This document shows positions 22,157 through 39,707 of a DNA stretch of 44,480 nt, piece after piece. This stretch comes from a virus. Location: positions 1-44,480 of IMG/VR virus record IMGVR_UViG_3300048785_000093. One strand, given 5' to 3'. Under the pieces are notes generated by a model. The model was not told the DNA's origin. It ran no database searches and was given only the letters and a program-made list of their open reading frames with translations. Every line of letters begins with the position of its first letter. Position 1 is the first letter of the stretch. Position numbers and translations under genes: made by a program.

Positions 22157-24072
22157 AAACTAAACTATCGGTCCTGTTTTTGACAATGCTGCTGGCACTC
22201 GCAGGAACAATGAACCTGCGCGCGGTGAGCAATGCGAGTGGCGTAATGAATGACATTTCCACGCTGTTTATCGTTGCGCCGACGAATGCGTGGGAGATCT
22301 GGGAGGGCGACCCGGCGGTTGTCCAGTTCTGGGTGGACATGATGACCTTGCACGGAAACGGCACGAACTGGGTGAACCTCAACTATACCAACCTTGTTGT
22401 CACCAACGGGACAACTGTTCCAGTGGGTTATCCATCAGACAGGATCGTTGTTGGAGACGCCAACGACGATTGGATTTCCCTATTTTCACCGAACGACAAT
22501 GCCTACATTGGAATTTTAATGGGGCCGAACAACGCCCCGCGCAGCGAGGGCCTTTATTACAAGAGTGGAATACTTGGTATTTATCACCAGTCGCACACAT
22601 TTGGGTCTTTCGACCAGAACGGAATCTTTAATCTGTTCTACGGAATAAATTTTCCGGCTGGTGGAGAAAACCTGCTGGGCCCGTCAAGTTATCCTGTAGG
22701 CTACACAAAGAGCGCACAGATTCCATTTGTTGGCGGGTCTGCGTCCAGCATGGATGACCTGCCGCCGTCTGCCCTGGCGGTTGCAAACAACATGCCGGTG
22801 CCGGTCTTCAAGTTTGCGGCGAATCTTAACGACAACTTTTCACTGACGAATTTCAACCAGCGCGAGATTACCAACATCATTCCACAGCTTGCTTTTCTTG
22901 AAGGCTTTTTGGAAGCGAACGGGACACCCTCGGTTTGCACCATTGACAGTCATTGGACTCATCCCAATCGGGATACAAACGGTTTTATAACGTGGGACAC
23001 CAATGCCTTTCCCAAAGGAATTCCGTGGCTGGCCGCATTCCTGCATACCAACCACTGGAACCTGGAACTGGACCTTTACTACATGCCCGGTTTCTTGAAT
23101 GCAACCAATATCCAGATTGTGACTGATAGCGCGTTCTATCAGGAGATGACTCCAATGACCGTCCAAAAAGACATCGGCCTGATCCATAGCTGGGGAGTAG
23201 ATGGCATTCGCGCCGAGGACAACGTTCTTGATTCTGGCTATCAGCAGCAACTCATGTTGCAAGTCTCCGCAGCCTGCGTCTCTCCAAAAGGACTTGTATT
23301 TAACGACCCCATAAATCAGACCTATCCCAGGCCGATGTATTCCGGCGCTCTTATTCAAAACCCGCCAAATCCAAACTGGTCATCCTGGCTTAATGAAGTT
23401 GGGAACGACGGCTTTGAATATCCTCCGCCTGCGGCAGCCACCACGTGGTTCCTTATAGACATGTGGAATGCGCGGGTGGACTGGACTAATTACGTTCCCG
23501 GAACATCAAGGGGACACTATTTCGACATTGGCCAGTTCAGTTCCTCCGTAGTTAACTACGGACTTCCGGATGCGCGAATAATACTTTCTTCATCCGCCAT
23601 GTTTTACAGCGTGTTGGGATTTGCGGGAAGCACCAACTATCCTTTTATAAGCCTTTCAATTACAAACAGTATGTTGTCCAACACAAACTGGCTTGCAATC
23701 CGAAATGACCCGCTGTTTGCCCACACAGTAAAAATTTACGACGGCGGAATTCTTTCGACTTCTGTATGGGCACGGCCACTTGCTTCCGCCGGCGCGGCGG
23801 TGTGGATGGTGAATGAGACAGGGGTGCCAGTAACACAGTCCATTCAGTTCTCCCAACTGGGAGCGTTACCAACAGCTACTTACGACGTTATTGACTGCTG
23901 GTCAAATGCTGTTGACCTTGGAAATTTTACCGGCGGATTTACCAACACAATTCCTGCATATGACTGTGGGTTATACCAGTTCAAGCCAGTGGCAACCGAC
24001 GTTTCAACAACAGGCGTTAAAGTTTATGCGCACCTGACCAACGGCGTGGCAACGTGGACGAGTTCACCCTGA
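22153..24072 (+). CDS. GH27/clan GH-D alpha-galactosidase-like protein with an N-terminal signal peptide
   Basis: CTIDSHWTHPNRDTNGFITWDTNAFPKGIPWLAAFLHTNHW parallels the GH27 segment IDDCW...RD..G.L..D...FP.GI..LA.Y.H. SWGVDGIRAEDN parallels WGVDLLKFDGC. The N-terminus is MKTKLSVLFLTMLLALAGTMNLRAVSNA. Confidence 0.65.
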   Translation: MKTKLSVLFLTMLLALAGTMNLRAVSNASGVMNDISTLFIVAPTNAWEIWEGDPAVVQFWVDMMTLHGNGTNWVNLNYTNLVVTNGTTVPVGYPSDRIVVGDANDDWISLFSPNDNAYIGILMGPNNAPRSEGLYYKSGILGIYHQSHTFGSFDQNGIFNLFYGINFPAGGENLLGPSSYPVGYTKSAQIPFVGGSASSMDDLPPSALAVANNMPVPVFKFAANLNDNFSLTNFNQREITNIIPQLAFLEGFLEANGTPSVCTIDSHWTHPNRDTNGFITWDTNAFPKGIPWLAAFLHTNHWNLELDLYYMPGFLNATNIQIVTDSAFYQEMTPMTVQKDIGLIHSWGVDGIRAEDNVLDSGYQQQLMLQVSAACVSPKGLVFNDPINQTYPRPMYSGALIQNPPNPNWSSWLNEVGNDGFEYPPPAAATTWFLIDMWNARVDWTNYVPGTSRGHYFDIGQFSSSVVNYGLPDARIILSSSAMFYSVLGFAGSTNYPFISLSITNSMLSNTNWLAIRNDPLFAHTVKIYDGGILSTSVWARPLASAGAAVWMVNETGVPVTQSIQFSQLGALPTATYDVIDCWSNAVDLGNFTGGFTNTIPAYDCGLYQFKPVATDVSTTGVKVYAHLTNGVATWTSSP

Positions 24073-24076
24073 CCAC

Positions 24077-24277
24077 ATGAACGGATTTTATCTCAACAAC
24101 GGCAAGGGCGGCCTGAATCTCGGCCAATACCAGGAGTTTTTCCTGCGGCCCAGCCTCAAGACGCTGCAGGGCCGCTACCCGGTGCTGACGTTTGTGAACA
24201 CGCGCGGGCGGCTGGTGATCAAGGCCGTGCTGCCCGTGAGCGAGGCCGGCCCTCGCAGAATGGGCATCCAAATTTGA
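24077..24277 (+). CDS. Hypothetical protein (66 aa)
   Basis: ORF between the GH27-like gene and a tail-fibre gene. Confidence 0.4.
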   Translation: MNGFYLNNGKGGLNLGQYQEFFLRPSLKTLQGRYPVLTFVNTRGRLVIKAVLPVSEAGPRRMGIQI

Positions 24278-24286
24278 AATGATTTT

Positions 24287-25225
24287 ATGCTGACAATCAC
24301 TTATACACCCGGCTACGTGTGGACGGTGGGCGAGATCGTGACCGAGGACAAGCTGAACCTCGCGAGCAATCCCATCATCAGCCTCGCCGGCAGCACGAGC
24401 GCGGCCAGCATCGGCGGCGGCAGCATCACCACGGCCATGCTGGAGACTGGCATCTTGAGCGCGGACAGCGCCGGACTGGCCCTGATGGCCGACGGCTATC
24501 TCACGCTGGCCAAGATCGCCAGCGGCATTTTCACCGCCAACGTCCTAGGACGCGCGCCGTTTGCGGCCGGGTGGCTGAATCTGGCGCTGGTGGGCACGGG
24601 CATCTTCCTGGCCACGCCGGCCGGGCGCGCGCCGTTTGCGCCGGGCGTGATCAAGGCTTCCTTGAGCCAGCCGGACGCATGGTTTTACGGCACCGGCGGA
24701 GGCAGCGGCACGCATTACCTCGTTACCTTGTCGCCCCTGTTGAGCGCCTACGTGAACGACAGCAACGTGCAGGTCTATAACAATTACTGGGACGGCCTGG
24801 TGATAGCGTTCAAAGCGCCGGCGACGAGCCTGGCGGCAGCGGACCTAAACGCCGGCCTGGGCGTAAACGCCATTTACCGGCTGGATGGGACGGTCATCCA
24901 GGCGGGCGATATCGTGGCCAATACCATCGTCGAACTCCGGTTTAACAGCAGCCTGGGCAGCGGCGGAGCATGGCAGCAGATGGCCTCCATCCCGGCAGCG
25001 CCGCAGAATTACCGGGCCGGCATCGCCACCACCAGCACCTCAACCACGGGCACGGTGACCTTCTCCACCGCCATGCCGGATGCGCTCTATCTGGTCTTGC
25101 TGTCTTCACATGACAATACGACTGGCGGCGGCGGCCTCTATCTGCTCACCCGGAGCACGAGCGGATTTACCTACCACGCGACGCACGGCGGGACGGTTGG
25201 ATGGATGGCACTCTATACGCACTAA
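24287..25225 (+). CDS. Tail fibre protein
   Basis: N-terminal repeats of the type ITTAMLETGILSADSAGLALMADGYLTLAKIASGIFTANVLG, typical of phage fibre shafts. Confidence 0.6.
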   Translation: MLTITYTPGYVWTVGEIVTEDKLNLASNPIISLAGSTSAASIGGGSITTAMLETGILSADSAGLALMADGYLTLAKIASGIFTANVLGRAPFAAGWLNLALVGTGIFLATPAGRAPFAPGVIKASLSQPDAWFYGTGGGSGTHYLVTLSPLLSAYVNDSNVQVYNNYWDGLVIAFKAPATSLAAADLNAGLGVNAIYRLDGTVIQAGDIVANTIVELRFNSSLGSGGAWQQMASIPAAPQNYRAGIATTSTSTTGTVTFSTAMPDALYLVLLSSHDNTTGGGGLYLLTRSTSGFTYHATHGGTVGWMALYTH

Positions 25226-25226
25226 A

Positions 25227-25739
25227 ATGGAAAACATTCAGACAAATCAACTGGCGCCAATGGCCGTGCAGACGACCGAACGTGAACCCGTGGCTGACTG
25301 GATGGAGTTCTGCCACCATCCGGCATGCGGCGACCTGTTCGCGGCGTGGCCGGACAATATCCTGCGCATCTATCTGCTGTGGCATACACATTGCCGCACA
25401 CTAATTGTGGTGCACGACGAGGCCAGCCGCGTGCTGGGGCTGGCCACGGGGTGGCAATGCCGGGAACGGGACTTGGGAGAACATTGGTTTTGCACGGACC
25501 CCGCGGGCGATTGTTTTTACTTTGACAAGCTGCTGGCCGCGAACCCGCGCGCACTGGCGGCGTTGATCCATGCTTTTACAATACGGTTTCCCCAGTGGCC
25601 GTGGCTGAGGCTATTTGCCCATCGCTACGGTGTGCTGCGGGAAATGAACCGGCGGGAAATCAACATGCTGTATCGCCTGGCCCAGCGCAGGTCCACAAGA
25701 GAGGACTTATGCGAGACCAGGAATTTGATTGGAACTTGA
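25227..25739 (+). CDS. Hypothetical Cys/His/Trp-rich protein (170 aa)
   Basis: ATG at 25227 follows the upstream TAA directly. The part of track ORF 25080 upstream of it overlaps the fibre gene. Confidence 0.5.
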   Translation: MENIQTNQLAPMAVQTTEREPVADWMEFCHHPACGDLFAAWPDNILRIYLLWHTHCRTLIVVHDEASRVLGLATGWQCRERDLGEHWFCTDPAGDCFYFDKLLAANPRALAALIHAFTIRFPQWPWLRLFAHRYGVLREMNRREINMLYRLAQRRSTREDLCETRNLIGT

Positions 25740-26650
25740 GCCGGGTGCTAGCGCACTCGGTGATGCTTGAACATCCCGAAGGCGGTCTGCGCAACAGCGG
25801 GCCATCGGGCGTGAACGTGCCCAACGCCAGCACGATAGGCCAGGCGAACCTGGCCGATCAATCCGCCGCCATGCAGCAAATCCCCAGTTGGATGTCCCAA
25901 CTGGAACCTCAATTCAGCGGCCTTGAGCTGGGCAACATCAACAGCATGCTCTACGGCACGCCGGCCAGCGGCTCCGTGGCGGCGCAGCCGGGCTTGATTG
26001 CGGCTTACCAGAACCTGCAGCCGACGATCAACCAGATGACCACGCAACAGCGCCAGGCCGGCATAACGGACGTGGCCAATCTCGCGCCGGCAGCCATGGC
26101 AGCCACGCGCGCGGGCAACCCGGGCGGAGCGGGACTGGTGGACACCGCGACGGCCCAGGCGCAGCAGCGGCTCAATTTGCAGGGCGCACTGGACCCGTTC
26201 ACCAAGACCATGCTGAACCAGGACATCCGCGGGGCGCAGAGTGCGCGCGGGTTTGGCACGGGCACGAACGACGCCGCAGCGGAGGCTTATTATCAGGACG
26301 CCACGCGCAATTCGCGGTATCAGCAGTCGCTGGGCAATGCCAGCGGCGCGGCGAGCATGAGCCAGGGCTTTTACGGCGACCCGTTCTCGCGCATCCTGGG
26401 CATGCCCACGAGCGGCGTGCCGACGGCGTCGGGCATAATCGGCGGCGCTACGAGCACCGGCCAGCTTGGACTGGGCAATGCCTACAGCCTGTTCAACCCG
26501 AATACGGGTCCGGCACTGAGTCTGGCGCAGCAGCAGTCGAATTTATGGTGGCAAAAGAGCCAGGCCGACTCGGCAAATTCCCAAGCTTACACCAAGATGG
26601 CTGTTTCTGGGGTAGGCTCACTGCTGGGCGGCATGGCTGGTGGAATGTAA
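25709..26650 (+). CDS. Gln/Gly/Ala-rich internal-virion-like protein (start uncertain)
   Basis: Low-complexity composition with a Gly-zipper C-terminus VSGVGSLLGGMAGGM. First gene of the three-gene block that ends in the giant ORF. Confidence 0.5.
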   Translation: MRDQEFDWNLSRVLAHSVMLEHPEGGLRNSGPSGVNVPNASTIGQANLADQSAAMQQIPSWMSQLEPQFSGLELGNINSMLYGTPASGSVAAQPGLIAAYQNLQPTINQMTTQQRQAGITDVANLAPAAMAATRAGNPGGAGLVDTATAQAQQRLNLQGALDPFTKTMLNQDIRGAQSARGFGTGTNDAAAEAYYQDATRNSRYQQSLGNASGAASMSQGFYGDPFSRILGMPTSGVPTASGIIGGATSTGQLGLGNAYSLFNPNTGPALSLAQQQSNLWWQKSQADSANSQAYTKMAVSGVGSLLGGMAGGM

Positions 26651-26664
26651 CAACGAGGTGATTT

Positions 26665-27783
26665 ATGGCTGATGACATGACAGAAGCTGGAGCAATAGGC
26701 GGAGCGGGGCTGGGGAAATTCATTGGCGGATTTATCCAACGCGCCAAACAGGCGAAGACCCTACGAGCTGCCATTGATGATTACGCGCCGCGGTTTGCCG
26801 CTGGAGACAATGACCCGGCAACAGGCCAGCCGGTAACACCGGATCAGGTGGAAAAACTGACGCCGGAAGGACAGTCTAGAGTAGCATGGTCGCATACGGC
26901 CGGGTTGCCAGATTTGGAAGGCTACTGGCAGGGCGAAACCCAGAAGAGGGCCGCGCAAAAGACGCAGGCGGACATTGCCGAGCAACAGGGCCGGGCGAAG
27001 TATTACAGCGACTTTGGGGACATGCGCAAACAGCAGGAACAGACCTCGAAGGACGACGAGGCCGACCGGGAAAACATTTCCAACATGCTGGGCGACTTCA
27101 GCAAGACACACCTTATGCCGGGCGAAACGCCGGACGTGGACCCGGACACGGGCGAACCGGCCACGGACAAGAAACCGTTCAATCCGATGGAGCTGCTGAT
27201 GGGCGCCATGCAGGCCGGCGTGAAGCCGCGCAATCTGCAGTTCATCAGCCAGAGCCTCAAGGACGTGTCGGGGTATGGGACGGACACGGAGGACAAGCCA
27301 AACCTTACCCAGGTGCCATCGGGACCGCCGGGCAGCCAGGGTTACCACACCATCCCGGTATTGACCCGTGGCAAAGGCTGGACGCAGGTGGACCCTGCTT
27401 ATGGCGCGGCGGCACGCGGGGGAGAGACGGCGGAATTGCAGACTCAACGCGAGGCGGCGCGGACCAAACTTGCTCCAAAGGATTTATTGAAGTCCTATCA
27501 GGACGAATTGACGGCGCTGAACAACCCGATGAACTGGTCTGGCACCACGCCGGAAGACAGGGCGGGGCACAGGGCGGAATTGACCGGGAAGATCGAACAG
27601 TTGCGCGGGAACGCGACAGGCGCGCCGGCAGCGGCGGCCACGGCGGCAAAGGGCTCATCGGCTTTAAGCAGCGTGCCGGCGGAGAAGCGGACGGCCGTTG
27701 GCGCATTGCAGCAGCAACTGGTTGCGGGCAAGATCACGAAACAGCAATTCAAGGATGAACTGGGCAAACTGGGCATTCAATGA
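26665..27783 (+). CDS. Internal-virion-like protein (372 aa)
   Basis: N-terminal Gly-rich segment. ATGA-coupled to the giant ORF. Confidence 0.5.
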   Translation: MADDMTEAGAIGGAGLGKFIGGFIQRAKQAKTLRAAIDDYAPRFAAGDNDPATGQPVTPDQVEKLTPEGQSRVAWSHTAGLPDLEGYWQGETQKRAAQKTQADIAEQQGRAKYYSDFGDMRKQQEQTSKDDEADRENISNMLGDFSKTHLMPGETPDVDPDTGEPATDKKPFNPMELLMGAMQAGVKPRNLQFISQSLKDVSGYGTDTEDKPNLTQVPSGPPGSQGYHTIPVLTRGKGWTQVDPAYGAAARGGETAELQTQREAARTKLAPKDLLKSYQDELTALNNPMNWSGTTPEDRAGHRAELTGKIEQLRGNATGAPAAAATAAKGSSALSSVPAEKRTAVGALQQQLVAGKITKQQFKDELGKLGIQ

Positions 27784-30700
27784 GCCTGGCCGATGAACTG
27801 ACCGAGGAAGCCGCGCCACCGTCTTTGGCAGACGATTTGGCGAATGAAGCGCCGCAGCCAATCGGCGACCAACTCGCGCGCGAGGCGCTGGTGCAGCAGA
27901 AGCAAAAGCTGGCGGCCCTGCCGGAAACCGGAAAATGGCGCGAGCTGTTTCCGGCCATGTTCGATCTATCGGACGAGCAGAAGCAAAACGCCGAGACAAC
28001 TCATGGCGCATTTCAGAAGCTGCGCGAATCAGGACTGACACCCACACAGATTGCCCAAAACGCGCAGGCCGTCCACGACAAGTGGGATGCGATCATTTCA
28101 ATGGCTTCGGAGTCCAGGCCGGACAATGTGCCCAAGTTCATTGCGCAGCGGGACGCGGAATTGCGCCAGGCCGGCGTGGAACCGATGAACCTGGACAGCG
28201 CATTTACCCTGCCCAAGATGGACGAGAAGGACGTGCGCGAACTTTTCCCACACGCGCCCGGCCGGGCCGTAAATGCCATCCAAGCCGGCCAGAACACAGC
28301 GGCGGCGCTGGGCGAGGGCTTTGCATCGCCGGAAGGGGTGCTGATGTTTCCAGCCGGGGTGGGGCCACAGGTCGGGCGCGCTTTTCTGGCTCAAATGGCG
28401 GCGAGTTTGCCGGTGGATTTGAGCCAGGCGGCGGGCCATTACTCCGCAGGCGACCCGGAAAGCGGGGACAGCAAACTGATACAAGCGGGCGTGACAGCGG
28501 GCATGCTGGGCATACCCATTGTGGCTGGCAGACGCGCGGGGATACAACCGAAAGGAGCACAAAATGCCGAAGCAATACGAAGCGATACGGGACAGTTACC
28601 TGAAACGGGGCAAATCCCTGAAGGAGGCCAAGAAGCTGGCGGCCATGACGTGGAACAAGGACCACCCGAACAACCCGAACCCGTGGAGTCGGGAGGACGC
28701 GCAGGCGCGGGTGAAGAAGGCGCTGTCGAGCCGCCGACGGTAGCCGATCTGGAGCAGGAAGCGCTCGGCCCCAAACTACCCGATGTTCCACCGGTCGGCC
28801 CGACGCAACAACAACAGAAAGACCCAGACCAGCCGATATTTGACCCGAACGAATTTGGCAGGCTGGTGGCTGAACTCAAGAGCGTCGCCGCACACGATGA
28901 GGCGGTGCTGAATGCGCCGGTGTTGCCGGGGCCGCGCCAGGCGGAGGAAGTTTCGGATGAAGAAATCCAGAAAGCCAAAGCGGAGCCCGAAGCCATGCGG
29001 CAGGCGGAGATTGAACGGGTGCGGGCCAGCGCCGAGGCGCGCGGCGCGCAGGGGACAGCCGGCCCTGCCCGCTGGACGCCGCCAGTGGCCGAGCCGGTAG
29101 AGCCAGTGCCCGCAGCCGAGGGTGGTTACAGGTTTGCGGATGCGGTCAAAGACGCGGGCGGATTGAGCGCGCCGCCGCTGGACGATGCCCTGGCGGAGAT
29201 CCGGAATGGCAAGAGCGCAGCCAGGGTGGTGGCGGAGTGGAGCCACGGCGCCACCGGCCACGACGAACTGGCCGGGATACTCGAGGAGATTGCCGGCGCG
29301 CGGGACAACAAGGAAGCCGTGCTTTACCGTAACTTGCGCGCAGCTTACAAGAAAGCCTTTGCCTGGAACGAGCCCGCCGGCCAGGGCGCGCCGGATGAGA
29401 CGTTGGCGGGCCTGGGAGACATTCAGCGGGCAGGCATGATGCCGGACCATATGCCGGAGACCGAGGAGGAACTTTACCGGCAGCAGTGGGAACATCACAC
29501 AGCCGGGCCGCCCGTTGATGCGGAGGCCACACAGGGGGCACAGGATGCGGCGGATTTTGAAGTCTTTAATAAGAGCCTGACAGTCCATAGTCCAGAGTCC
29601 ACAGTCCCGGAAATTTGGAGCGGCGATCAGAAGCTGGGCGAGGTGCGGACGGGTGCGAGCGGCGCGAAACATTTTGTGCCGGGGCCGGAGGCGGAACGGT
29701 TGCCGCCGGAATATCAACTGGCCGTGATGAGCAAGGCCGGGATTGACATTGAACACGGGATGGCCGTGCCTGCCGGTGGCGAGGCGTTGCCGGGATTGGG
29801 CACCAGCCAGCCGGAACTGGACCCCACCATGCTGCGCAAGCTCACCAAGATGGCGAGCATTCTCGTGGAGCAGGGCAAGACGAGTTTCCCCGATTTCGCC
29901 AGGACGATGAGCCAGGCGCTTGACGGGAAGTTAAACCAGTATTATCATGCGGCATACGAACAAGTGCGGTTTTACACCGAGGCGTGGCACTTGCGGGACC
30001 GGCTTACGCCTCAAGAGGAGACCGAGACTTATGACAACAATGGCAACCGAACCGATCGAGCAGGCGCCGCTGGAGGCGGACCGGAGCTTTCTGGAACAGT
30101 GGGAGGAGCGGGCCGTGGCCGACGACCAGGCCTTCGCGTGGTTGACTTCCGAGATTTACCAGCGCCCAGACCGATTGTCCGCAGTGGCGAATATACGGGG
30201 CCGGGCGGCGCGGGCCTCGATGAGGTCCAGCGCTTCGCCGTCAATGCCGCCCTCACCGCCTTCGACGACGGCAAGAAAGCCTATCTCCTCGGGGACGGCA
30301 CAGGCGTCGGCAAAACCGGCACGGAACTCGCCATTGCCAACGCCTACGCGCAAAAGACCAAGCTCCCCAGCCTGATTGTCACACAGAGCATTCCCATAAT
30401 CGAAAACCGTTTCAAACAGGACGCCGTAAAGCTGGGCGTGCCCATGCAAAACACGACGTTCATCACCTACAGCGATCTGTCCACCGGCAAGGTGCCCGCC
30501 GGGAAGTTTGGCGTGGTGATCTATGACGAGGCTCACAATCTCAAGAACGCCGGCAGCGCGCGGGAGACGTATAGCCGCGACGTGCAGGCGGAACGCAAGG
30601 TCTTTGCCACCGCCACGCCCATGGATGGGCCCACGCACGCCAGTTATTTTTTGAGCGAGCTTACCGGCAAGACGCGGGAACAAATCGCATCGCAACTCGG

Positions 30701-33700
30701 CTTCCATTACGAACAGCGGATGGTGAACGGGAAGAGCCGCACGATGGCCGTGCTGGACAAAGACACGAGCTGGGGCACGGTGGTGGACCATATCAAGAAG
30801 CTGCGCAATCTGGCGGTGCAGGCCGGCCAGTTGATCCGGCGCGAATATCCTTTTTACGGCCGGGCGCAACTGCGCGAGGCGCCAGCCTATTCCAAGGCGC
30901 AGCGGGATGAACAGGAGACGATCATCGCCCATTGGGACAAGCTGATCAACGCCGCGCGACCGGGCAGCAATTACCGGCGCAATCTGGCAGGCCAGAAGAC
31001 GCTCGAGCTTTCGCGCTGGGCGGAGATCCAGAAGCTGCCGCACATCCGCGATGCCATGCTGCAGGATTACAAGGACGGCAAGCACGTAATTGTGTATGCG
31101 GAGAATTACAATCCGAGCATGGTAAAAGGCCTGGGCAAAAGCATTCCCGGTTTTCTCACCGAGTTGGGCAAGGAACTTGACGCCAGGAAAATCCCTTACG
31201 CCAAAGTGTTCGAGGACGATCCGTATGCCAAGGCGAAGGCGGCGGCGGCGTTCCAGGGCGGGCGGGTGAAGGTGTTGCTGGCCACGCCGCGCAGCGGTGG
31301 CGCCGGGCTGGACATGGACGACCAGATCGGTAATGCGCCGCGCCAGGCGCACGCGGCCACGCTCAACTTTAGCGCCGACGTGTTCGATCAGATGCTGGGC
31401 CGCGTCTCGAGGCGCAACACGGCCAGTCCGGCGGATTTTCATGTGTGGATGAACCGGGACAGCTTTGCCGATGGCCGAAGGATGCAGGTGGCGGACCGCA
31501 AATTGCGCGTGCTGCGCAACATCCAAGCGGGCGAAGACCTGGACACCAGCGAGTTTGAAGGGGAAGGGGAGCATGGGATGCCGGATTTCAACGGGGCATT
31601 TGCGTTTGAACCGGCGGAAAGCAGCGCGGAACAGGCGGCGAGGATGGTGGGCGAAGAAGTCCAGAGTCATCAGTCCGCAGTCCGCAGTCAAATGCAGGCG
31701 CGCGCGCAGGAGCGACTCACAGGCAGCACGGGCGATCTGGGACAAGGGGATTTTGTGGGCGGCGGGGATTTGTTCGCGCCAACAACGCGCGCTTCAGTTG
31801 AGCGGCCGATGTTCATTCCGCTCAAAAGCGAGTTCTTCGAGGCCTTCAAGTCGGGCGACAAACGTGAAGAATATCGGAAATATGGGCCCGGCTGGAATGA
31901 GAAAACCGCCCCGGTGGGGCGCAAGGTTGTTCTGTCGAAGGGTTATTCTGGCGAGAGGCTGACGGGCACGATTACCGGATTCAGAAAGGAAACGAATCCT
32001 CAGAGTCTTCCCGGCTGGAATAAGGTGTATGGATCAGAAGCCGGGACGGCGGCCGTCATTGAGATTGCGGTGGATCGAAACGAGTCTGAACATGGCCAGC
32101 CAGCCTTGCAGCGTGGCGGCGTGCCGGGGTTGCCGGTGGAAATGGACCAGACCAAGGCAGGCAAAGCCACCATCGGCCAGATCAATGCGGCGCTCGAAGC
32201 TGTCTCGCGCGCGGCGGGCGGCAATACGCCCATCCGGTCGGGCCGCGTGACCGGCCGCACGGCCATCGGACCGAATCGCGCCATTTACAAGGACCGTCAG
32301 GAAGTTGTCCGCGTGCGCAGTGTGGATGATATTCCCGCCGCCACGCATGAGATTGCCCATGACCTCGCCAAACAGGTGTTTGGGCGCGTGGCAGCCGGAG
32401 GCGATCAGGGTGGCTCTCCCGCGGCCATGCGCGAGCTGGAAGACCTGGGCAAGGCCCTTTACGGCGATGTGAAGCCCCTTGCGGGTTACGGTGGCGAAGG
32501 CTGGGCGGAATATCTCCGGCACTGGCTATCCACCGATGAGGCGCCAACAGTCGCGCCGCACATGACCAAGTGGTTTAATGAGCAGTTTTTGCCGTTACAC
32601 CCGGAGATTGCCGAGGCGCTGACGAAGGCGCGCGAGCTTATCACCACAAGCCGGCTGCAAGGGGCCGCAGCGCGCGCCCAGGCGCAACTGGCGAGGTCGC
32701 CGGGCGCTTTGCGGCAGATTGCCCAGGCATTGGGCCAGTTTGTAAGTTACAAGGCGCAGATTGAATCGTTCGCGCCCCTCGAGCGGCTGGTGAAGGCGGC
32801 GGAAGCCAGGGCGGGCAAGTTGCCGCCATCGGAGAATCCTTTCCTGCTGGCGTCATGGAAACGCGGCAGCGCCGGCGCCACAGTGGAGCGAATGGCCACC
32901 GAGCACATGCTGGATATTTGGGGCAATCCCGTCGGGCCATCGCTGCGCGAGGCGTTTGCGCCGGTGCAGGGCCAGCGCAGCGAGACGTTGCTGCTGGCCT
33001 TTGCCAAGGCGGCACAGGCGCGGTGGGAACAAACGCGCATGGTGACGGACCCAAGGAGCGGCCAGCGCTCTTTTTTACCGGACCCCAAGAATCCCGGCAT
33101 CAGTCTGGCGGATGCACAGCATATCATCAAGACCATGAGCACGCCGCAGCGCGAGATCGCGGTGCAGAAATGGCGTGAGTGGCACAATGGCCTGCTGGAT
33201 TACCTGGTGCAGGCGGATCCGGGCATGAAACCGCTCGCTGACAAATGGAAATCGGCACAGTTTTACATGCCGCTGGCGCGCATGATTGATCCGGCCCGAG
33301 CCAAGGCCGCAGCGGCGCTGGCCAATAGCAATCCTTTCTTCCGCATGCGCGGCAGCGGATTGCCCGTCAAGGATCTGCTGGACCAGACCATGCTGAATGC
33401 CGCGCGGCTGGTGAACCGGGCCAATCGCGCGCTCGTCACCAACAGCATCGTAAAATTGTCCAATCTCGAAGGGATGGGCCATTTGGTCGAGGCCATCCCG
33501 CGCGGGCGTGTGCGCAATCTGGTGTCGCTTGATCAGGTGCGGGCGCAGCTCGAGGACTTGGGCATTGACACAAGCGAAATGCCGAAGGATCGGATGCTGG
33601 AGTATTGGACGCCGGCGGACATGCCCAAAGGCAGCGCGCCGATCATCGCGGTGGGCAGTCCCGGCCAGCGGCGCTGGTTTCAGGTGGACCCGGAGCTTTA

Positions 33701-35333
33701 CCAGACTTTGGACGGGCTGCAAACTTACTCGCTCAAGCAGGCGTTGCCGGGTTTGCCCTATGCCGGCAAGCTGTTGGATCTCGTCCTGGGCGCGCCTACG
33801 CGCATGTTCCGGCTGGGCACAACGGCCATACGGCCCGGATTCCAGTTCATCACGCAACCCGCGCGGTCGCTGGCACTGATGCTGATGCAGGGGGATAATC
33901 CGGCGCGGTCGGCGCTCAATTATCCGGCGGCGCTGGCGGGCGTGCTCAAGGAAGGGTTCGGTGGCAAGGCTGAGCCATATTCGGCAGCGTTCAAGGATCT
34001 CGGCGCGCACATGGGCCAGCCGCTCGGCCTGGACATCGGCTATACCAAACGCATGAGCGATGAACTATTTCATGGGCGCGTGATCCGAACCGTGCAACAT
34101 CCCATTGACCATTTGCGCCAGTTGTTGAGCATACCCGAAGGCGCGCCGCGCGTGGCGGAGTTGAAAGCCATTGCGGACAAGATCGGCTGGACACCAGGCC
34201 GGCCCATGCTGCCGGATCAGGCAGTGCAGATGGCACTGGCGGCCAAGCGGGTGACAGTGGACTTTTCCGCCGCGGGCGACATGAGCCGGGTGCTGAACCA
34301 GGCGATCCCGTTTTACAATATCACACTGCAACACACGCGGGCGTATGCGCGGGCGTTCATGGAACATCCTGCGCGATCAGCCCTGCTGGCTGGCATGGTG
34401 TTCGCCGCGCCGACGCTGCTGAACTGGTGGCGCAACAAGGACAAGGAATGGTATCAGGCCATGCCGTGGAAGGAACGCTACCTTTACACCTGGCTCGACG
34501 ACGGCAAGAACCTGTGGAAGATCGCGCGGCCATTCGAATGGGGCATGACGGCGATGGCGCTGCCGGAAGCGATGGCAGACTCGTGGTATCGGCGCGATCC
34601 CGAGGCGGTGAAACACGCTTTGGGAGCAATATTCACGGACCTGGATCCGGTGGATTATCCGGTGTTGCTCAAGCTGGCCAAGGAACAATGGCAGAACCGT
34701 ATTGCCTACTTTGACCGGCCAATCGTGCCGCCGTCCGAAGTGGGATTGCCGGCGAACCAGCAGCGCGGGCCCTACACCTCGAGGCTGGCCATCGGCATCA
34801 ACAAGGTTTTCCCCGATGCGAGTCCCCGGCGCGTGGATGCTTTCCTGCGCGGCTATTTCGGCGGCGCGGGCACGGAGGCAATGCAACTCATCGGCTTGGG
34901 ACCACCGCGATCCGGCCGCGGCTGGGAACCGACGGATCTGCCCGTGGCGGGCACGCTGTTCAGGGCAGGCGGCCAGTTCAACGCCAACAACCAGTTTGTG
35001 GCGGACTTTTACGACCGTTACAACCTGATGCAATCGCAGTTCGAGGCGTGGCAAGTGCAGGCCAGCCGGGCCAAGATCACCGGGCAGCCGCCCACGATGC
35101 AGCCGCCAGACTGGGGCATGCAGATGAAGCGGACCATTGCGACGGGCACCACCAAGGAACCGGGCGCAGCACCGGCCTTGAAGGCACTGATGGCGCTGGC
35201 CGGCGCCACGCGGGACAACGATCAGCGCAGTGCGCTCTACCGCGAGGCCGGAGAGACAGCCAAGCGCGCGGTGGAAGCGTTTGATCGTGTGGACAAAGTA
35301 GCGGCACCAAACGGCGCAGCAGGCGGCAAATGA
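27780..35333 (+). CDS. Giant polyvalent protein (2,517 aa): SF2 SNF2/strawberry-notch-like helicase, ASCH-like domain, HExxH zincin, and large unassigned N- and C-terminal regions
   Basis: Helicase motifs GDGTGVGKTG (nt ~30291), VVIYDEAHNLKN (DEAH at 30525..30536), FATATP, LLATPRSGGAGLDMDD and QMLGRVSRRN (~31389). ASCH-like FIPLKSEFFEAFKSGDKREEYR...GRKVVLSKGY (~31806..32075). HEIAH at 32346..32360 followed by EGWAEY. Confidence 0.8.
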   Translation: MSLADELTEEAAPPSLADDLANEAPQPIGDQLAREALVQQKQKLAALPETGKWRELFPAMFDLSDEQKQNAETTHGAFQKLRESGLTPTQIAQNAQAVHDKWDAIISMASESRPDNVPKFIAQRDAELRQAGVEPMNLDSAFTLPKMDEKDVRELFPHAPGRAVNAIQAGQNTAAALGEGFASPEGVLMFPAGVGPQVGRAFLAQMAASLPVDLSQAAGHYSAGDPESGDSKLIQAGVTAGMLGIPIVAGRRAGIQPKGAQNAEAIRSDTGQLPETGQIPEGGQEAGGHDVEQGPPEQPEPVESGGRAGAGEEGAVEPPTVADLEQEALGPKLPDVPPVGPTQQQQKDPDQPIFDPNEFGRLVAELKSVAAHDEAVLNAPVLPGPRQAEEVSDEEIQKAKAEPEAMRQAEIERVRASAEARGAQGTAGPARWTPPVAEPVEPVPAAEGGYRFADAVKDAGGLSAPPLDDALAEIRNGKSAARVVAEWSHGATGHDELAGILEEIAGARDNKEAVLYRNLRAAYKKAFAWNEPAGQGAPDETLAGLGDIQRAGMMPDHMPETEEELYRQQWEHHTAGPPVDAEATQGAQDAADFEVFNKSLTVHSPESTVPEIWSGDQKLGEVRTGASGAKHFVPGPEAERLPPEYQLAVMSKAGIDIEHGMAVPAGGEALPGLGTSQPELDPTMLRKLTKMASILVEQGKTSFPDFARTMSQALDGKLNQYYHAAYEQVRFYTEAWHLRDRLTPQEETETYDNNGNRTDRAGAAGGGPELSGTVGGAGRGRRPGLRVVDFRDLPAPRPIVRSGEYTGPGGAGLDEVQRFAVNAALTAFDDGKKAYLLGDGTGVGKTGTELAIANAYAQKTKLPSLIVTQSIPIIENRFKQDAVKLGVPMQNTTFITYSDLSTGKVPAGKFGVVIYDEAHNLKNAGSARETYSRDVQAERKVFATATPMDGPTHASYFLSELTGKTREQIASQLGFHYEQRMVNGKSRTMAVLDKDTSWGTVVDHIKKLRNLAVQAGQLIRREYPFYGRAQLREAPAYSKAQRDEQETIIAHWDKLINAARPGSNYRRNLAGQKTLELSRWAEIQKLPHIRDAMLQDYKDGKHVIVYAENYNPSMVKGLGKSIPGFLTELGKELDARKIPYAKVFEDDPYAKAKAAAAFQGGRVKVLLATPRSGGAGLDMDDQIGNAPRQAHAATLNFSADVFDQMLGRVSRRNTASPADFHVWMNRDSFADGRRMQVADRKLRVLRNIQAGEDLDTSEFEGEGEHGMPDFNGAFAFEPAESSAEQAARMVGEEVQSHQSAVRSQMQARAQERLTGSTGDLGQGDFVGGGDLFAPTTRASVERPMFIPLKSEFFEAFKSGDKREEYRKYGPGWNEKTAPVGRKVVLSKGYSGERLTGTITGFRKETNPQSLPGWNKVYGSEAGTAAVIEIAVDRNESEHGQPALQRGGVPGLPVEMDQTKAGKATIGQINAALEAVSRAAGGNTPIRSGRVTGRTAIGPNRAIYKDRQEVVRVRSVDDIPAATHEIAHDLAKQVFGRVAAGGDQGGSPAAMRELEDLGKALYGDVKPLAGYGGEGWAEYLRHWLSTDEAPTVAPHMTKWFNEQFLPLHPEIAEALTKARELITTSRLQGAAARAQAQLARSPGALRQIAQALGQFVSYKAQIESFAPLERLVKAAEARAGKLPPSENPFLLASWKRGSAGATVERMATEHMLDIWGNPVGPSLREAFAPVQGQRSETLLLAFAKAAQARWEQTRMVTDPRSGQRSFLPDPKNPGISLADAQHIIKTMSTPQREIAVQKWREWHNGLLDYLVQADPGMKPLADKWKSAQFYMPLARMIDPARAKAAAALANSNPFFRMRGSGLPVKDLLDQTMLNAARLVNRANRALVTNSIVKLSNLEGMGHLVEAIPRGRVRNLVSLDQVRAQLEDLGIDTSEMPKDRMLEYWTPADMPKGSAPIIAVGSPGQRRWFQVDPELYQTLDGLQTYSLKQALPGLPYAGKLLDLVLGAPTRMFRLGTTAIRPGFQFITQPARSLALMLMQGDNPARSALNYPAALAGVLKEGFGGKAEPYSAAFKDLGAHMGQPLGLDIGYTKRMSDELFHGRVIRTVQHPIDHLRQLLSIPEGAPRVAELKAIADKIGWTPGRPMLPDQAVQMALAAKRVTVDFSAAGDMSRVLNQAIPFYNITLQHTRAYARAFMEHPARSALLAGMVFAAPTLLNWWRNKDKEWYQAMPWKERYLYTWLDDGKNLWKIARPFEWGMTAMALPEAMADSWYRRDPEAVKHALGAIFTDLDPVDYPVLLKLAKEQWQNRIAYFDRPIVPPSEVGLPANQQRGPYTSRLAIGINKVFPDASPRRVDAFLRGYFGGAGTEAMQLIGLGPPRSGRGWEPTDLPVAGTLFRAGGQFNANNQFVADFYDRYNLMQSQFEAWQVQASRAKITGQPPTMQPPDWGMQMKRTIATGTTKEPGAAPALKALMALAGATRDNDQRSALYREAGETAKRAVEAFDRVDKVAAPNGAAGGK
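28564..28743 (+). CDS. 59-aa basic helical protein overprinted in the +1 frame of the giant ORF
   Basis: AAGGAG at 28552..28557 lies 6 nt before the ATG. 51 of 59 codons end in G/C, against 27 of 60 in the main frame over the same span. Sequence: MPKQYEAIRDSYLKRGKSLKEAKKLAAMTWNKDHPNNPNPWSREDAQARVKKALSSRRR. Confidence 0.6.
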   Translation: MPKQYEAIRDSYLKRGKSLKEAKKLAAMTWNKDHPNNPNPWSREDAQARVKKALSSRRR

Positions 35334-35358
35334 GCGTTGTAAACCGTTGGCCATCAAA

Positions 35359-35424
35359 CTGGATAATCAATCATCCAGTTTTCTCTTAATCATCTGGTCG
35401 CCGGTTCGATCCCGGCCCGAGGCA
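35359..35424 (+). other. attP core region: 3' half of a tRNA (anticodon loop to discriminator, register suggests Lys-CTT) plus flanking CCAG/CTGG inverted repeats
   Basis: CTCTTAA-TCATC-TGGTC-GCCGG-TTCGATC-CCGGC-CCGAGGC-A (35383..35424) has exact tRNA 3'-half geometry. No complementary 5' acceptor or D arm lies upstream, and it is followed by CTA rather than CCA. The integrase stop codon is 240 nt away. Confidence 0.65.
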
Positions 35425-35510
35425 CTACCGCTTTTGCTGTCTTTTGCGCGTTTTGACCGCTGCCCACATAGGTTTGATTCAACTGCCTACCCACAAGTGT
35501 CCTGTCGTTT

Positions 35511-35539
35511 AGCGGAACGTAGCGGAACGTAGCAGAACC
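35511..35539 (+). repeat. Three tandem ~10-bp repeats AGCGGAACGT / AGCGGAACGT / AGCAGAACC (candidate arm-type sites)
   Basis: Read directly between the attP core and int. Confidence 0.6.
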
Positions 35540-35545
35540 ATCAAC

Positions 35546-35576
35546 TGGCATCAAAAGTGGCATCAGGGTGGTATCA
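35546..35576 (+). repeat. Three phased direct repeats TGG(C/T)ATCA spaced 12 and 11 nt apart (candidate arm-type or accessory-factor sites)
   Basis: TGGCATCA at 35546 and 35558, TGGTATCA at 35569. A related TGGCCATCA lies at ~35348 on the other side of the core. Confidence 0.55.
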
Positions 35577-35663
35577 AAGATCTCTTCTGGTATAATGGCT
35601 CGAACGGATTTTAGCCAACCTTTCGGCTGCAGTCAGTCTCGCGTTTGTTGGTTTTTTTATTTT

Positions 35664-36860
35664 TCATAGTTGCTGTTGAACGATGGTGAGAACGGGCACC
35701 TGGTCGAGCACGGCCCAGTGCGCGGCGATGTCGTCGAGGTTCGCGGGCTTGAATTTGCAGACAAAGTGACTGTAGTGAGCTTCCGTAACCTTCACGCTGC
35801 TGTGGCGCAACCAGGTTTGGGCATCGTAAATCCCATATTTCATTGCGACCTGGCTGCCGGCATAGGCGCGCAAGGCGTGGTTTGTCTTTTGTGTCTGCCA
35901 GCCGAGGCCGCGCAGGAAGTCCGACACGCCCCGCGGAAGACCGTCGGCGCGATAACTGGCGCTGCCGAGGATAATAAAGTCCCCCGTAAGCCAGCCGCGC
36001 GCTATGGCCTTCGTCCGCATGATGGTGTAAAACGGATCCAACGCGCGGACTTGGACGAGCCCGGTCTTGTTTTTTACGTGCGCCTCGCCATCGAGCACAG
36101 GATAACCCTGCCGGGCGGTCCACCAACTCCACTTTGCTTGGGCCACTTCGCCAATGCGCAGTCCAAAGGCCAACTCATGGCCGATGGCAAGGAAGAGGTT
36201 GCGGTCGTCGAGCACTTCCCACGCAGCCAGCGTGCGCTGGATGATCTCGTCAGAGGGCGGATTGTATTCAATTCGTGGCAGGTCGGCGAAGGGTTTAACC
36301 GCAAGAAACTTGTCGAGGCTGCCAGGCAATTTCAACCGGCAGTCTTCCGTAAAATACTCCCGCATGTCATCGCTAAATACGCTGCGCGCCTGCCGCAACA
36401 CGGAATTTGACGTGCGCAAAACCCGTGTGTGATTCGCGTCAATCTGCTTGCCATTGGCGAAGGCTGCCTTTTGAAGCTTCCACGCACGCAAGAGATCATA
36501 AGTCATGGCACCAACGTCCAGAGCTTTTCCCATGTCCGCCATAATCTTGCCCAGGCAATTGATATTGCCGCGCCGTGTTTTTGGAGCGGGCCGCCTCCCT
36601 GGATAGCGCAGGTATGCCGCTTCGACCTCTGCCCAGGACGAATAGCCAACGTTTCGCATCCTGGTGCCATCCAACCGCTCGAACTGGCCGGCAATGATGG
36701 CTTCGGTGATTTCCTTGTGGAGCAGCCGCGCGCGCTGCTGCGCAATACTGGCATCATTTGTTTGGAGGCAACGGGGATAGACCACGCCCCGGAAGGCGAA
36801 TTTGAAATACCAAGGCGCGTCCCGGGTCTCGGAACGTTTGTGCAGGGCGAAAGTTTTCAT
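35664..36860 (-). CDS. int: Tyrosine recombinase / phage integrase
   Basis: Catalytic signature GLRIGE ... NHALRAYAGS ... WLRHSSVKVTEAHY (R, HxxR, H, Y). Adjacent to the tRNA-fragment attP. Confidence 0.9.
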   Translation of the reverse strand: MKTFALHKRSETRDAPWYFKFAFRGVVYPRCLQTNDASIAQQRARLLHKEITEAIIAGQFERLDGTRMRNVGYSSWAEVEAAYLRYPGRRPAPKTRRGNINCLGKIMADMGKALDVGAMTYDLLRAWKLQKAAFANGKQIDANHTRVLRTSNSVLRQARSVFSDDMREYFTEDCRLKLPGSLDKFLAVKPFADLPRIEYNPPSDEIIQRTLAAWEVLDDRNLFLAIGHELAFGLRIGEVAQAKWSWWTARQGYPVLDGEAHVKNKTGLVQVRALDPFYTIMRTKAIARGWLTGDFIILGSASYRADGLPRGVSDFLRGLGWQTQKTNHALRAYAGSQVAMKYGIYDAQTWLRHSSVKVTEAHYSHFVCKFKPANLDDIAAHWAVLDQVPVLTIVQQQL

Positions 36861-36869
36861 AGACGCGAA

Positions 36870-37157
36870 TTATAACGGAGCGTTGGTTTCGATGGATGAA
36901 GCGGGAATGAAATTCGAAATTGGTGCCCAGTCGGCGACGCCATTTTTCGTGACATAACGCAGAAACCATGCGCGCCCGGTGGCAGTGTCAAGTTTTACGG
37001 CCGTTTCCAAAATCTGCGGATGATTCAGGTCGGGCCCTATTATCTCCAGCCGCACGGGTATGATGGTATAACGCCCGATTTGAGGGGATGGTGAATCGCC
37101 AGCGGCAACGGTTAGAATTAACAGCAAAGCTAATGCCAAAATAGTGGGTTTTTTCAC
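36870..37157 (-). CDS. Small exported protein (signal peptide), lysogeny-module moron / superinfection-exclusion candidate
   Basis: The N-terminus is MKKPTILALALLLILTVAAGDSP. Overlap-coupled to the RHH gene and 9 nt upstream of int. Confidence 0.55.
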   Translation of the reverse strand: MKKPTILALALLLILTVAAGDSPSPQIGRYTIIPVRLEIIGPDLNHPQILETAVKLDTATGRAWFLRYVTKNGVADWAPISNFIPASSIETNAPL

Positions 37158-37393
37158 GGTTTCCTTTTATTGCGGTAACTGACAGGTTCGTTGAGTTCTG
37201 GCCGTTCCGTTGGCCTGATGACGGATGATGCCACATCGGGCACGCTGACATTTCCCGGTTTCCGCTCAAAGTATTCCCTCAAAGCCTCGCGAACGATTAC
37301 AGAAAGCGCTTCGCCGCGGCGTTCGGCCTCCGCGTCAAGTTGTCGGCGCAGTTCCGCTGTAAGACGCAAGTAAATCGTCTCTTCTTTCGTCAT
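37154..37393 (-). CDS. Ribbon-helix-helix (CopG/Arc-like) DNA-binding protein; repressor candidate
   Basis: IYLRLTAELRRQLDAEAERRGEALSVIVREALREYF fits the RHH beta-alpha-alpha pattern. First gene of the minus-strand lysogeny operon. Confidence 0.7.
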   Translation of the reverse strand: MTKEETIYLRLTAELRRQLDAEAERRGEALSVIVREALREYFERKPGNVSVPDVASSVIRPTERPELNEPVSYRNKRKP

Positions 37394-37399
37394 GTTCCT

Positions 37400-37428
37400 A
37401 TTGTCCTACAAACGGCGGCCATTGTCAA
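37400..37428 (-). promoter_or_regulatory. Leftward sigma-70-like promoter TTGACA-N17-GACAAT, ending 6 nt before the ATG (leaderless transcript predicted)
   Basis: The reverse complement of 37423..37428 is TTGACA and of 37400..37405 is GACAAT. The gene's ATG is the complement of 37391..37393. Confidence 0.5.
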
Positions 37429-37449
37429 TTAAATAATTCAAAATTGTTC

Positions 37450-37478
37450 TTGACGGATTGTTGCGATTGTATGATAAT
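37450..37478 (+). promoter_or_regulatory. Rightward sigma-70-like promoter TTGACG-N17-GATAAT, ending 7 nt before the ATG at 37486 (leaderless transcript predicted)
   Basis: TTGACG at 37450..37455 and GATAAT at 37473..37478. Five ATTGT repeats occur across 37400..37470. Confidence 0.55.
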
Positions 37479-37485
37479 TCGCAAT

Positions 37486-37662
37486 ATGGTTCATGAAACA
37501 AAGCTTGCGTTTAGGTTGCCGAAGTCGCTGAAACGCCGCATAAACAAAGAAGCAAAGCAGCGCTTCATTTCGGAAGCGGATGTTGCTCGCGAAGCCATAA
37601 TCGCTTTCTTCAGCGATCCTAAATCTTCTGCCAACGGCAACAGAAAGGGGGTGGCGGCGTGA
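37486..37662 (+). CDS. Ribbon-helix-helix DNA-binding protein (Cro-like counterpart)
   Basis: KLAFRLPKSLKRRINKEAKQRFISEADVAREAIIAFF fits the RHH pattern. The track's TTG start at 37444 would include the promoter. Confidence 0.65.
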   Translation: MVHETKLAFRLPKSLKRRINKEAKQRFISEADVAREAIIAFFSDPKSSANGNRKGVAA

Positions 37663-38156
37663 ATCTGGGAGACACCATTTTCATGGCGCCGGCCGAGGTC
37701 GGCTTGCGACCTGCACCGGTCCGGCGCTGCAAATGGTGCATTGAGCGCGTCGGCGCGCCTCGTTTTTTTGTGCAAGGCCACTGGTCTTTGGCTTGGATAG
37801 GCACACCCAAAGGCAATATCACAGACGGCATTTGCCCGGAATGTTTGGCTCATCAGAAAGCTTCGATTTTGCGGGATAGATCAGTGGTAGATCGCCTGCC
37901 TCATAAACAGGTTGTCGCTGGTTCGATTCCAGCTCCCGCTACCAATTTGCCGCGGCGCAAGGCTGCGGCAGCAGCGCGGGTGCTTGCCGGGAGCTTCTAT
38001 ACGTTTCTCTTGGGGTTCCTCAACAAACCAAGAAACACCTTGACACCTATGACTGGCAGCTTCATCCCATCGCCCGCGCGTTTTTTGTCAATCAGCAATT
38101 CGATCTGGCGCGAAACCCTGCAACCAAAACGCCGCCGGATCCGCTGGATTGTTTGA
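37659..38156 (+). CDS. Zinc-ribbon protein. Only the first ~70 codons look coding, and the frame has no stop before running through the tRNA gene.
   Basis: GTGA overlap with the upstream gene. CKWC...(31 aa)...GICPEC zinc ribbon. Translation downstream of nt 37870 looks non-coding. Confidence 0.4.
   Translation: MNLGDTIFMAPAEVGLRPAPVRRCKWCIERVGAPRFFVQGHWSLAWIGTPKGNITDGICPECLAHQKASILRDRSVVDRLPHKQVVAGSIPAPATNLPRRKAAAAARVLAGSFYTFLLGFLNKPRNTLTPMTGSFIPSPARFLSISNSIWRETLQPKRRRIRWIV
37870..37944 (+). tRNA. tRNA with anticodon CAT (Met, fMet or Ile2 type), CCA encoded
   Basis: Hand-folded cloverleaf. Acceptor stem GCGGGA/TCCCGC plus a T1:T72 mismatch. D stem GATC/GATC with an AGTGGTA loop. Anticodon loop CTCATAA (CAT at 37902..37904). 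T arm GCTGG-TTCGATT-CCAGC. Discriminator A followed by CCA. Confidence 0.85.
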
Positions 38157-39706: not shown

Positions 39707-39707
39707 C

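Follow-up and report, generated by a model that had tools for sequence, protein, structure and literature searches.

What could a single protein of 2,517 residues, in which helicase-like and peptidase-like segments lie on one chain, do for a phage with a genome of about 44 kb? We addressed this question for the window, by which we mean the whole 44,480-nucleotide stretch of IMG/VR virus record IMGVR_UViG_3300048785_000093 (positions 1 to 44,480), where such a giant is encoded at 27780..35333 on the + strand. An initial annotation, made from the letters without database searches, had described the product as a virion-delivered multi-enzyme effector. Our analysis leads to a related reading, to which we give a probability of roughly 0.7, that this is a phage polyvalent protein, incorporated in the particle and ejected into the host along with the DNA, and composed of a vehicle module and its cargo. 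What points to virion delivery of the 2,517-residue protein is the homology of its C-terminal module to proteins that have been detected in virions.

The gene is a single open reading frame (ORF) that runs uninterrupted from ATG to TGA through 2,517 codons, or 7.5 kb, just as it was first annotated. A chimera or frameshift artefact is excluded because the identical protein occurs on four contigs, drawn from one JGI metagenome and two independent Logan SRA assemblies, and because a comparably long frame is also open in diverged homologues at 55-77% identity. With the exact protein recovered on four independent contigs, we dropped the assembly-artefact reading. The G+C content of the gene (0.61-0.635) matches that of the flanking late genes. 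None of 50,697 phage records matched the gene by megablast, and a genome contig collection scanned with the protein held no relatives. Viral contigs yielded relatives only at 24-27% identity (L008-L018), and the upstream genes of the giant gene are absent from all of these. Since BLASTP omits an alignment of ~890 residues at 58% identity (query residues 380-1267 against the homologue P0002) that tblastn and phmmer report, we judged domain sharing by HMMER and tblastn.

A C-terminal module that joins a zincin to LPD38

Roughly 900 residues at the C-terminus had originally been left without an assignment. This gap can now be filled, as the region holds an LPD38 domain (residues 2222-2389, 34443..34946) joined to the zincin that precedes it. 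The Pfam model, PF18857, matches with E=2.7e-24 and 86.7 bits, against a cut-off of 27, over profile positions 1-188 of 189, and LPD38 is present in 32 of 32 aligned family members. Between the zincin and LPD38 lies a conserved, mostly helical middle (residues 1641-2221, 32700..34442), and after LPD38 comes a helical tail (residues 2390-2517, 34947..35330) that forms long helices in the AlphaFold2 (AF2) model and is conserved to about residue 2500 in the closest homologues.

Residues 1431-2517 as the query of an exhaustive HMMER search gave 5,434 cluster representatives, 1,323 of them at E<=1e-30. The module is C-terminal in all of the 150 best matches among these 5,434, and nearly all of the 150 span most of its ~1,000 residues, a few being partial or fragments. 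The proteins that carry it range from about 1,000 to 7,000 residues in length, and in P0037, P0071 and P0176 the module stands essentially alone. Zincin, helical middle and LPD38 align end to end across the 5,434-member family. Because family matches span both named domains and only the fused front part varies, we regard zincin and LPD38 as one unit of ~1,070 residues that starts at the zincin and of which Pfam's 189-residue LPD38 covers just a part. The AF2 model of the C-terminal 1,087 residues is a compact multi-helical body, with a predicted local distance difference test (pLDDT) of 81 and a predicted template modeling score (pTM) of 0.73. Its fold matches in BFVD are dozens of phage 'large polyvalent' proteins, on which the other cargos include a methylase, RelA/SpoT and a lytic transglycosylase. 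When the whole model was compared with the PDB by Foldseek, the best match had E=0.29 and a template modeling (TM) score of 0.10, and the matches were mostly transporters and mitochondrial RNA polymerase. Confidently predicted and with no solved counterpart, the unit is a good target for structure determination.

The zincin metallopeptidase domain itself occupies residues ~1455-1640 (32142..32699). Its HEIAH motif, H1523-E-x-x-H1527 (32346-32360), is followed by EGWAEY, which supplies E1573 (32496-32513), 46 residues past the second histidine, and the gluzincin layout with a spacing of about 50 residues that had been read from the letters is thereby confirmed. H1523, E1524, H1527 and E1573/G1574 are invariant in the 32 aligned family members, and the two histidines and two glutamates stay in column across homologues at 23-35% identity. 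In the AF2 model the domain runs in the order helix, three strands, HExxH helix and Glu helix (strands at module residues 55-57, 71-74 and 79-82; helices at 88-104 and 139-154), which is the order described for the metallopeptidase (MPTase) domains of polyvalent proteins (PMC5512222). A family profile of this region (A3) matched only M34 zincins in the PDB, namely PPEP-1/Zmp1 at E=0.006 and lethal factor at 0.016-0.5, in an alignment that extends through the third zinc ligand, and one family member matches Pfam ATLF at 6e-4. We assign the domain to the lethal-factor-like (M34-like) zincins.

Giant proteins with an LPD38 domain have been found in the virions of two different phages. Burkholderia phage JC1 gp69 (4,515 residues) was detected in CsCl-purified virions by 51 unique peptides (PMC9144972), and gp47 of Stx phage phi24B (2,811 residues) is abundant in virions, invisible in the cryo-EM map and proposed as an ejection protein (10.64898/2026.04.10.717836). 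Knock-down of a third, coliphage PTXU04_00025 (2,197 residues), shows that it is critical for infection (10.1101/2023.09.18.558157). PTXU04_00025 shares the LPD38 C-terminal module with the present protein, at 24% identity over residues 1949-2397 and with a BFVD fold match at E=1.4e-26. It differs, as does phi24B gp47, in carrying other N-terminal cargo, with neither helicase nor ASCH reported; gp47, which has LPD5, LPD1 and a metallopeptidase, is likened to the present protein by description only. JC1 gp69 and Bcep22 gp75, both termed 'DarB-like', have in common with it the position of last large virion-module gene in a temperate-type podovirus, a SNF2-type helicase and a C-terminal LPD38. 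JC1 gp69 is nevertheless nearly twice as long, has an extra lytic transglycosylase, adenine methylase and LPD3, and is too distant to be among the tblastn matches at E<=1e-5. Homologues also stand at the end of the virion module in Achromobacter phage CF418P1 and the coliphages Pondi and PTXU04, as well as in JC1, and in pelagiphage HTVC204P the 1,253-residue gp40 follows tail tubular proteins A/B and an 'internal virion protein', a slot like that of T7 gp16.

The idea that such a giant would be new to a small podovirus-like genome was therefore overstated. Giant LPD38/'DarB-like' proteins encoded by the last gene of the virion module are already described in phage genomes of 38-61 kb (short-tailed where stated: JC1, HTVC204P). 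By its module and gene position the present protein can be likened to the giant 'DarB-like' proteins in virions of Bcep22-type and 933W-type podoviruses, with a different combination of cassettes; because combinatorial variation is what defines the class, the new combination stays within it. What sets this protein apart is its lack of the DarB methylase, its ASCH cassette and ~800 unassigned residues at the N-terminus.

Cargo in front of the module

The most readily recognized cargo is a SNF2-like ATPase/translocase at residues ~805-1250 (30192..31529). The helicase motifs are all found where the initial annotation had quoted them: GDGTGVGKTG (motif I; residue 838, 30291-30320), DEAHNLKN (motif II, DEAH; residue 916, 30525-30548), TATP (motif III; residue 944), LLATPRSGGAGLDMDD (motif V; residue 1166) and QMLGRVSRRN (motif VI; residue 1204). 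Family members all keep the Walker A glycine, D-E-x-H in motif II, A-T-P in motif III and Q...G-R..R in motif VI. On the order of motifs I, II, III, V and VI in the sequence, the ATPase is a member of superfamily 2 (SF2), SWI2/SNF2 clade. Profile searches upheld the helicase assignment, with ResIII at 36.5 bits above the Pfam cut-off of 22.5, SNF2-rel_dom just below its own (23.0 vs 24.9), and PHROG_62 and PHROG_16, both 'DNA helicase', matching the region. A profile of eight family members (A4) found SsoRad54 as its best PDB match at E=6.6e-12, with Fft3, LlaGI/LlaBIII, Rad54, ISWI, CHD1L, SNF2 and RapA among the further matches; the top 28 are all SNF2-family ATPases or type ISP LlaGI/LlaBIII (E=6.6e-12 to 1.2e-5), and flaviviral NS3 helicases do not come up before rank 29. 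A Strawberry-notch-like ATPase was considered and rejected, AAA_34 (21.6 vs 27) and Helicase_C_4 (14.7 vs 30.5) both falling below the Pfam threshold.

Polyvalent proteins were defined by Iyer, Burroughs, Anand, de Souza and Aravind in 2017, who list LPD38 as restricted to phage-type polyvalent proteins, describe the lethal-factor-related zincin MPTase as a hub domain of the class, and report that its SNF2-clade helicases 'nearly always' come with a fused adenine methylase, P1 DarB being an example (PMC5512222). Like other members of the class, the present protein is one giant polypeptide that has a zincin MPTase hub, an ATPase of the SNF2 clade and LPD38, and it is encoded among the virion genes of a portal/terminase phage. 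It combines several unrelated domains (SNF2-like ATPase, ASCH, zincin and LPD38) in 2,517 residues, and its gene lies in a late/virion context. It departs from the class in that its helicase is not preceded by a unit of LPD36 and adenine methylase, and in that it has an ASCH domain, a word absent from the main text of PMC5512222.

The comparison with P1 DarB drawn in the initial annotation holds for the SNF2-clade helicase on a giant protein, which in the case of DarB is packaged in the capsid and protects incoming DNA (PMC5512222), but it went too far, since DarB is defined by its methylase-helicase dyad and the methylase is missing here. Residues 1-800 have no methylase match in Pfam, PHROG or NCBIfam, the methylase motif [DNS]PP[YFWH] occurs nowhere in the 2,517 residues, and a DarB-type dyad was rejected on the lack of both domain and motif. 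DarB differs further in having no LPD38 module in published domain lists and in belonging to a myovirus. The SNF2 ATPase of a polyvalent protein can thus exist without the DarB methylase. The phage does encode a free-standing N6/N4 DNA methyltransferase at 394-1098 (phrog_67, E=8e-42), which, unlike the methylase of DarB, is separate from the SNF2 ATPase.

Behind the ATPase, residues 1343-1432 (31806..32075) are predicted to fold as an ASCH domain, a PUA-like beta-barrel. This is the exact stretch common to free-standing proteins of 93-102 residues at 49-67% identity. Its AF2 model has a pLDDT of 87.6, and Foldseek ranks 1-25 in the PDB are filled entirely by ASCH proteins (E=2.4e-4 to 0.2, TM scores of up to 0.66), including 3iuw (E=2.4e-4), PH0355, ZmASCH, YqfB and TRIP4, which bears out the ASCH-like segment that had been placed at about these positions. 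G1359-x-K1361-x-x-E1364-x-R1366 is invariant in 7 sequences, and GxKxxExR is reportedly the ASCH signature of Iyer, Burroughs and Aravind from 2006. The identification needed a fold search because sequence models alone missed the domain: the Pfam ASCH model has no match at E<=10, DUF3850 matches one homologue at E=0.15, and against PDB sequences phmmer found nothing and a profile (A2) only a spurious G-alpha match. Because the close homologue P0001 lacks the domain at 77% identity, we consider it an exchangeable cassette, and ASCH can be added to those that polyvalent proteins use.

The ~800 residues at the N-terminus remained without an assignment after Pfam, PHROG, PDB and homologue searches, as they had been at the outset, and neither of their two conserved regions matches any described LPD. 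The first, at residues 48-264 (27921..28571), is 54-55% identical to the N-termini of P0002 and P0006; phmmer matches these two and, more weakly, P0047, always at the N-terminus, and there are no Pfam, PHROG or PDB matches. It ends in a Gly-zipper-like hydrophobic stretch, IQAGVTAGMLGIPIVAG. A low-complexity linker rich in Pro, Glu, Gly and Gln follows (residues 265-429, 28572..29066), and the composition scan gives a fraction of disorder-promoting residues of 0.66-0.68 at residues 251-350. The second region, at residues ~430-800 (29067..30179), consists of conserved blocks with variable insertions between them that are common only to P0001, P0002, P0031 and P0035, and it has no Pfam match at E<=10. 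A homologue search with residues 1-800 gave 8,000 candidates, none of them significant. Cargo is exchanged even among close relatives: P0001 has no ASCH, and P0002 combines the N-terminus, helicase and ASCH with another C-terminus. P0002 is a protein of 2,438 residues from a sister phage (contig L003, 6361-14984, JGI 3300046505), and its divergent C-terminus contains a HELGH motif.

Proposed delivery with the virion and its alternatives

How might these parts work together? In the polyvalent reading, the C-terminal ~1,070 residues (zincin, helical region and LPD38) would be a conserved chassis for incorporation into the virion, ejection or both, and would form the largest internal/ejection protein, in concert with two small Gly-rich proteins whose genes lie just upstream. 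The N-terminal ~1,430 residues would be exchangeable cargo, namely two domains of unknown function, a SNF2-type dsDNA translocase and an ASCH barrel that may bind or process nucleic acid. Once inside, this cargo would most likely target the entering genome or nucleoprotein complexes of the host, and it could plausibly strip off or outrun restriction and other DNA-targeting defence proteins, a DarB-like task carried out without a methylase. The zincin would most likely cut the polyprotein itself and so release or activate its modules.

Two well-known systems offer partial parallels. N4 virion RNA polymerase (vRNAP, gp50) is a virion-packaged giant whose C-terminal 1,400 residues, which contain an MPTase, are required for encapsidation (PMC5512222), and it has enzymatic cargo in front of that region. 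The logic is shared; however, the N4 cargo is an RNA polymerase, and no homology is detectable beyond the HExxH helix (hhalign probability <2%), the comparison with the N4 MPTase (residues 2130-2448) aligning 13 residues around HExxH with a probability of 1.5%. T7 gp14, gp15 and gp16 likewise come from three consecutive late genes of rising size near the tail genes. Only this positional analogy holds, as the present protein has no lytic transglycosylase domain and neither phmmer nor a Foldseek search of the PDB finds similarity to the T7 core or to known ejection proteins.

Several observations weigh against the polyvalent, virion-delivered reading. Direct detection in virions is for homologues, from which we infer packaging of the present protein. 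LPD38 is undetectable in P0002 of the sister phage, so this lineage does not strictly depend on the chassis. Among solved structures, no ejection or core protein matches the C-terminal model (the best PDB match has E=0.29), hhalign finds no profile similarity between the module and the C-terminal 1,400 residues of N4 vRNAP, and a composition scan of the 2,517 residues finds no strongly hydrophobic transmembrane segment. The sequence evidence for the zincin is only marginally significant (best E=0.006), and Pfam MPTase-PolyVal does not match the protein. Finally, the name 'ejection operon' is drawn from position only, because the upstream proteins and most genes of the phage have no recognizable homologues.

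Some of these points bear equally on a different account of the same module, in which the protein is a structural component of an ejectosome, the C-terminal module forms a trans-envelope conduit and the SNF2 motor pulls the genome into the cytoplasm, with no part in anti-defence. ATPases of the SNF2 type translocate on dsDNA, and LlaGI/LlaBIII, which are type ISP enzymes, rank among the best matches here; module-only homologues exist, one of them in the T7-gp16-like slot, infection of even a laboratory host depends critically on the PTXU04 homologue, a conduit role was proposed for phi24B gp47, and three consecutive late proteins have Gly-zipper-like stretches. We nonetheless hold this account to be unlikely. 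It is weakened because most family members have other cargos and no helicase, so the motor is no general part of entry, and neither fold similarity to known ejection proteins nor transmembrane helices were found. A bolder version makes the zincin-LPD38 unit a universal packaging-and-ejection vehicle, of a fold without a solved counterpart, that delivers a methylase-free SNF2 motor and an ASCH reader to act at the entry portal. We rate it as quite unlikely. If it were true, a motor at the portal would reel the genome in or sweep off DNA-bound defence proteins, and a short-tailed phage would thereby secure the entry of its genome by a mechanism that is new.

It is very unlikely, in our view, that the product is a late cytoplasmic helicase/peptidase polyprotein that stays out of the virion and serves replication, recombination, DNA packaging or intracellular counter-defence. 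Helicase and ASCH are generic nucleic-acid enzymes, the neighboring genes cannot be annotated, and the sequence itself proves no packaging; yet LPD38 proteins were detected in the virions of two different phages, and translational coupling ties the gene to the last part of the structural block, a long way from the replication genes at 39663-41923. Being the sole very long ORF of the genome, in the tail-proximal late region, the gene also invites the thought of a tape measure or another tail structural protein. We find this hardly credible and dropped it, as enzymatic domains fill the middle of the protein and its C-terminal 1,087 residues are modeled as a compact, confident multi-helical body (pTM 0.73) with no extended coiled coil. 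Homologues moreover occur in podoviruses, which have no tape measure, and no tape-measure PHROG or Pfam family matches.

The polyvalent reading leaves current understanding unchanged, since homologues are already known as virion-borne and important for infection. It adds one carefully analyzed member to the giant phage proteins, a very large class whose mechanism is unknown; of further interest are the fold and role of the C-terminal unit and a SNF2-ASCH cargo that lacks a methylase.

Neighboring genes and other features of the genome

The giant gene is the last of the + strand late block and is contiguous and on the same strand with the gene for the major head protein (9247-10263). Immediately upstream, 26665..27783 (+) encodes a 372-residue protein that has no matches in PHROG, Pfam or NCBIfam and carries an N-terminal Gly-zipper, AGAIGGAGLGKFIGGFI. 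In front of it, 25763..26650 (+), a gene call in contig L005, encodes a 295-residue protein rich in Gly, Gln, Ala and Ser that has VSGVGSLLGGMAGGM at its C-terminus and shares 29% identity with its syntenic counterpart in the sister phage L003. From their position only, both are candidates for co-ejection with the giant protein. The initial annotation had ATGA coupling for both genes, which is correct for 26665..27783 but not for 25763..26650, which ends at 26650, 14 nucleotides before the next ATG. It had also called both proteins Gly/Gln-rich; this is clearly so for the first (G 13%, Q 10%, A 15%) and less so for the second (G 11%, Q 8%). Gly-zipper-like stretches thus occur in three consecutive late proteins, as VSGVGSLLGGMAGGM, AGAIGGAGLGKFIGGFI and, at residues 234-250 of the giant protein (28479-28529 of the window), IQAGVTAGMLGIPIVAG. 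They may be membrane-active segments of an ejection apparatus.

Further upstream the genes are late and virion-like, but the label 'tail-fibre' that they were first given depends on weak or sub-threshold matches: 24287..25225 matches Gp53-like_C at E=7.5e-4, below the Pfam cut-off, and 19233..21938 matches 'virion structural protein' PHROGs. A promoter and terminator scan of 18000-37900 gave counts at or below shuffle expectation and is therefore uninformative on operon structure. NCBIfam had no matches to the giant protein or five of its neighbors. Among 30 other ORFs searched with PHROG and Pfam, we could identify the major head protein, the integrase, a DnaB-like and a DnaD-like protein (both at 39663-41923, far from the giant gene), the DNA methylase, a melibiase-like protein and the weak tail-fibre/virion matches. 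Most ORFs of the phage, including the presumed terminase and portal genes (2425-4476 and 5142-7370), have no PHROG, Pfam or NCBIfam match, and the lineage is very poorly charted.

Downstream of the giant gene, a tRNA-like fragment, ggtcgccggttcgatcccggcccgaggca (35396-35424), resembles the T-arm and acceptor 3' half of a tRNA and is not called by ARAGORN. It is a probable attP core because it lies between the stop of the giant gene and a tyrosine integrase gene (35664-36860, - strand); it has no exact matches in the genome contig collection. Beside it are three tandem 10-mers (35510-35539: tagcggaacg, tagcggaacg, tagcagaacc), possibly arm-type sites of the integrase or binding sites of a regulator. 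The sister phage (L003/L004) has the same layout of giant gene, attP-like region and integrase, and on L003 an extra 434-residue ORF lies between the P0002 gene and the integrase.

The window begins and ends with an exact 127-bp direct repeat (1-127 = 44354-44480), and contig L005 spans the junction. We take the repeat as the overlap of a circular assembly, and the true phage genome would therefore be 44,353 bp. ARAGORN and Rfam (62 bits) both find a phage tRNA-Met with anticodon CAT at 37870-37944. Two ORFs of ~500 residues at 12756-15757 lie in a stretch of low G+C (~0.50); neither has a PHROG match, and the one at 12756-14267 has no Pfam match. The other low-G+C island (0.51 vs ~0.60) lies among the tail genes, where 22153-24072 encodes a 639-residue protein with a signal-peptide-like N-terminus and similarity to alpha-galactosidases (Melibiase_C / Melibiase_2); the protein may be a tail enzyme that degrades a receptor, or a moron acquired recently.

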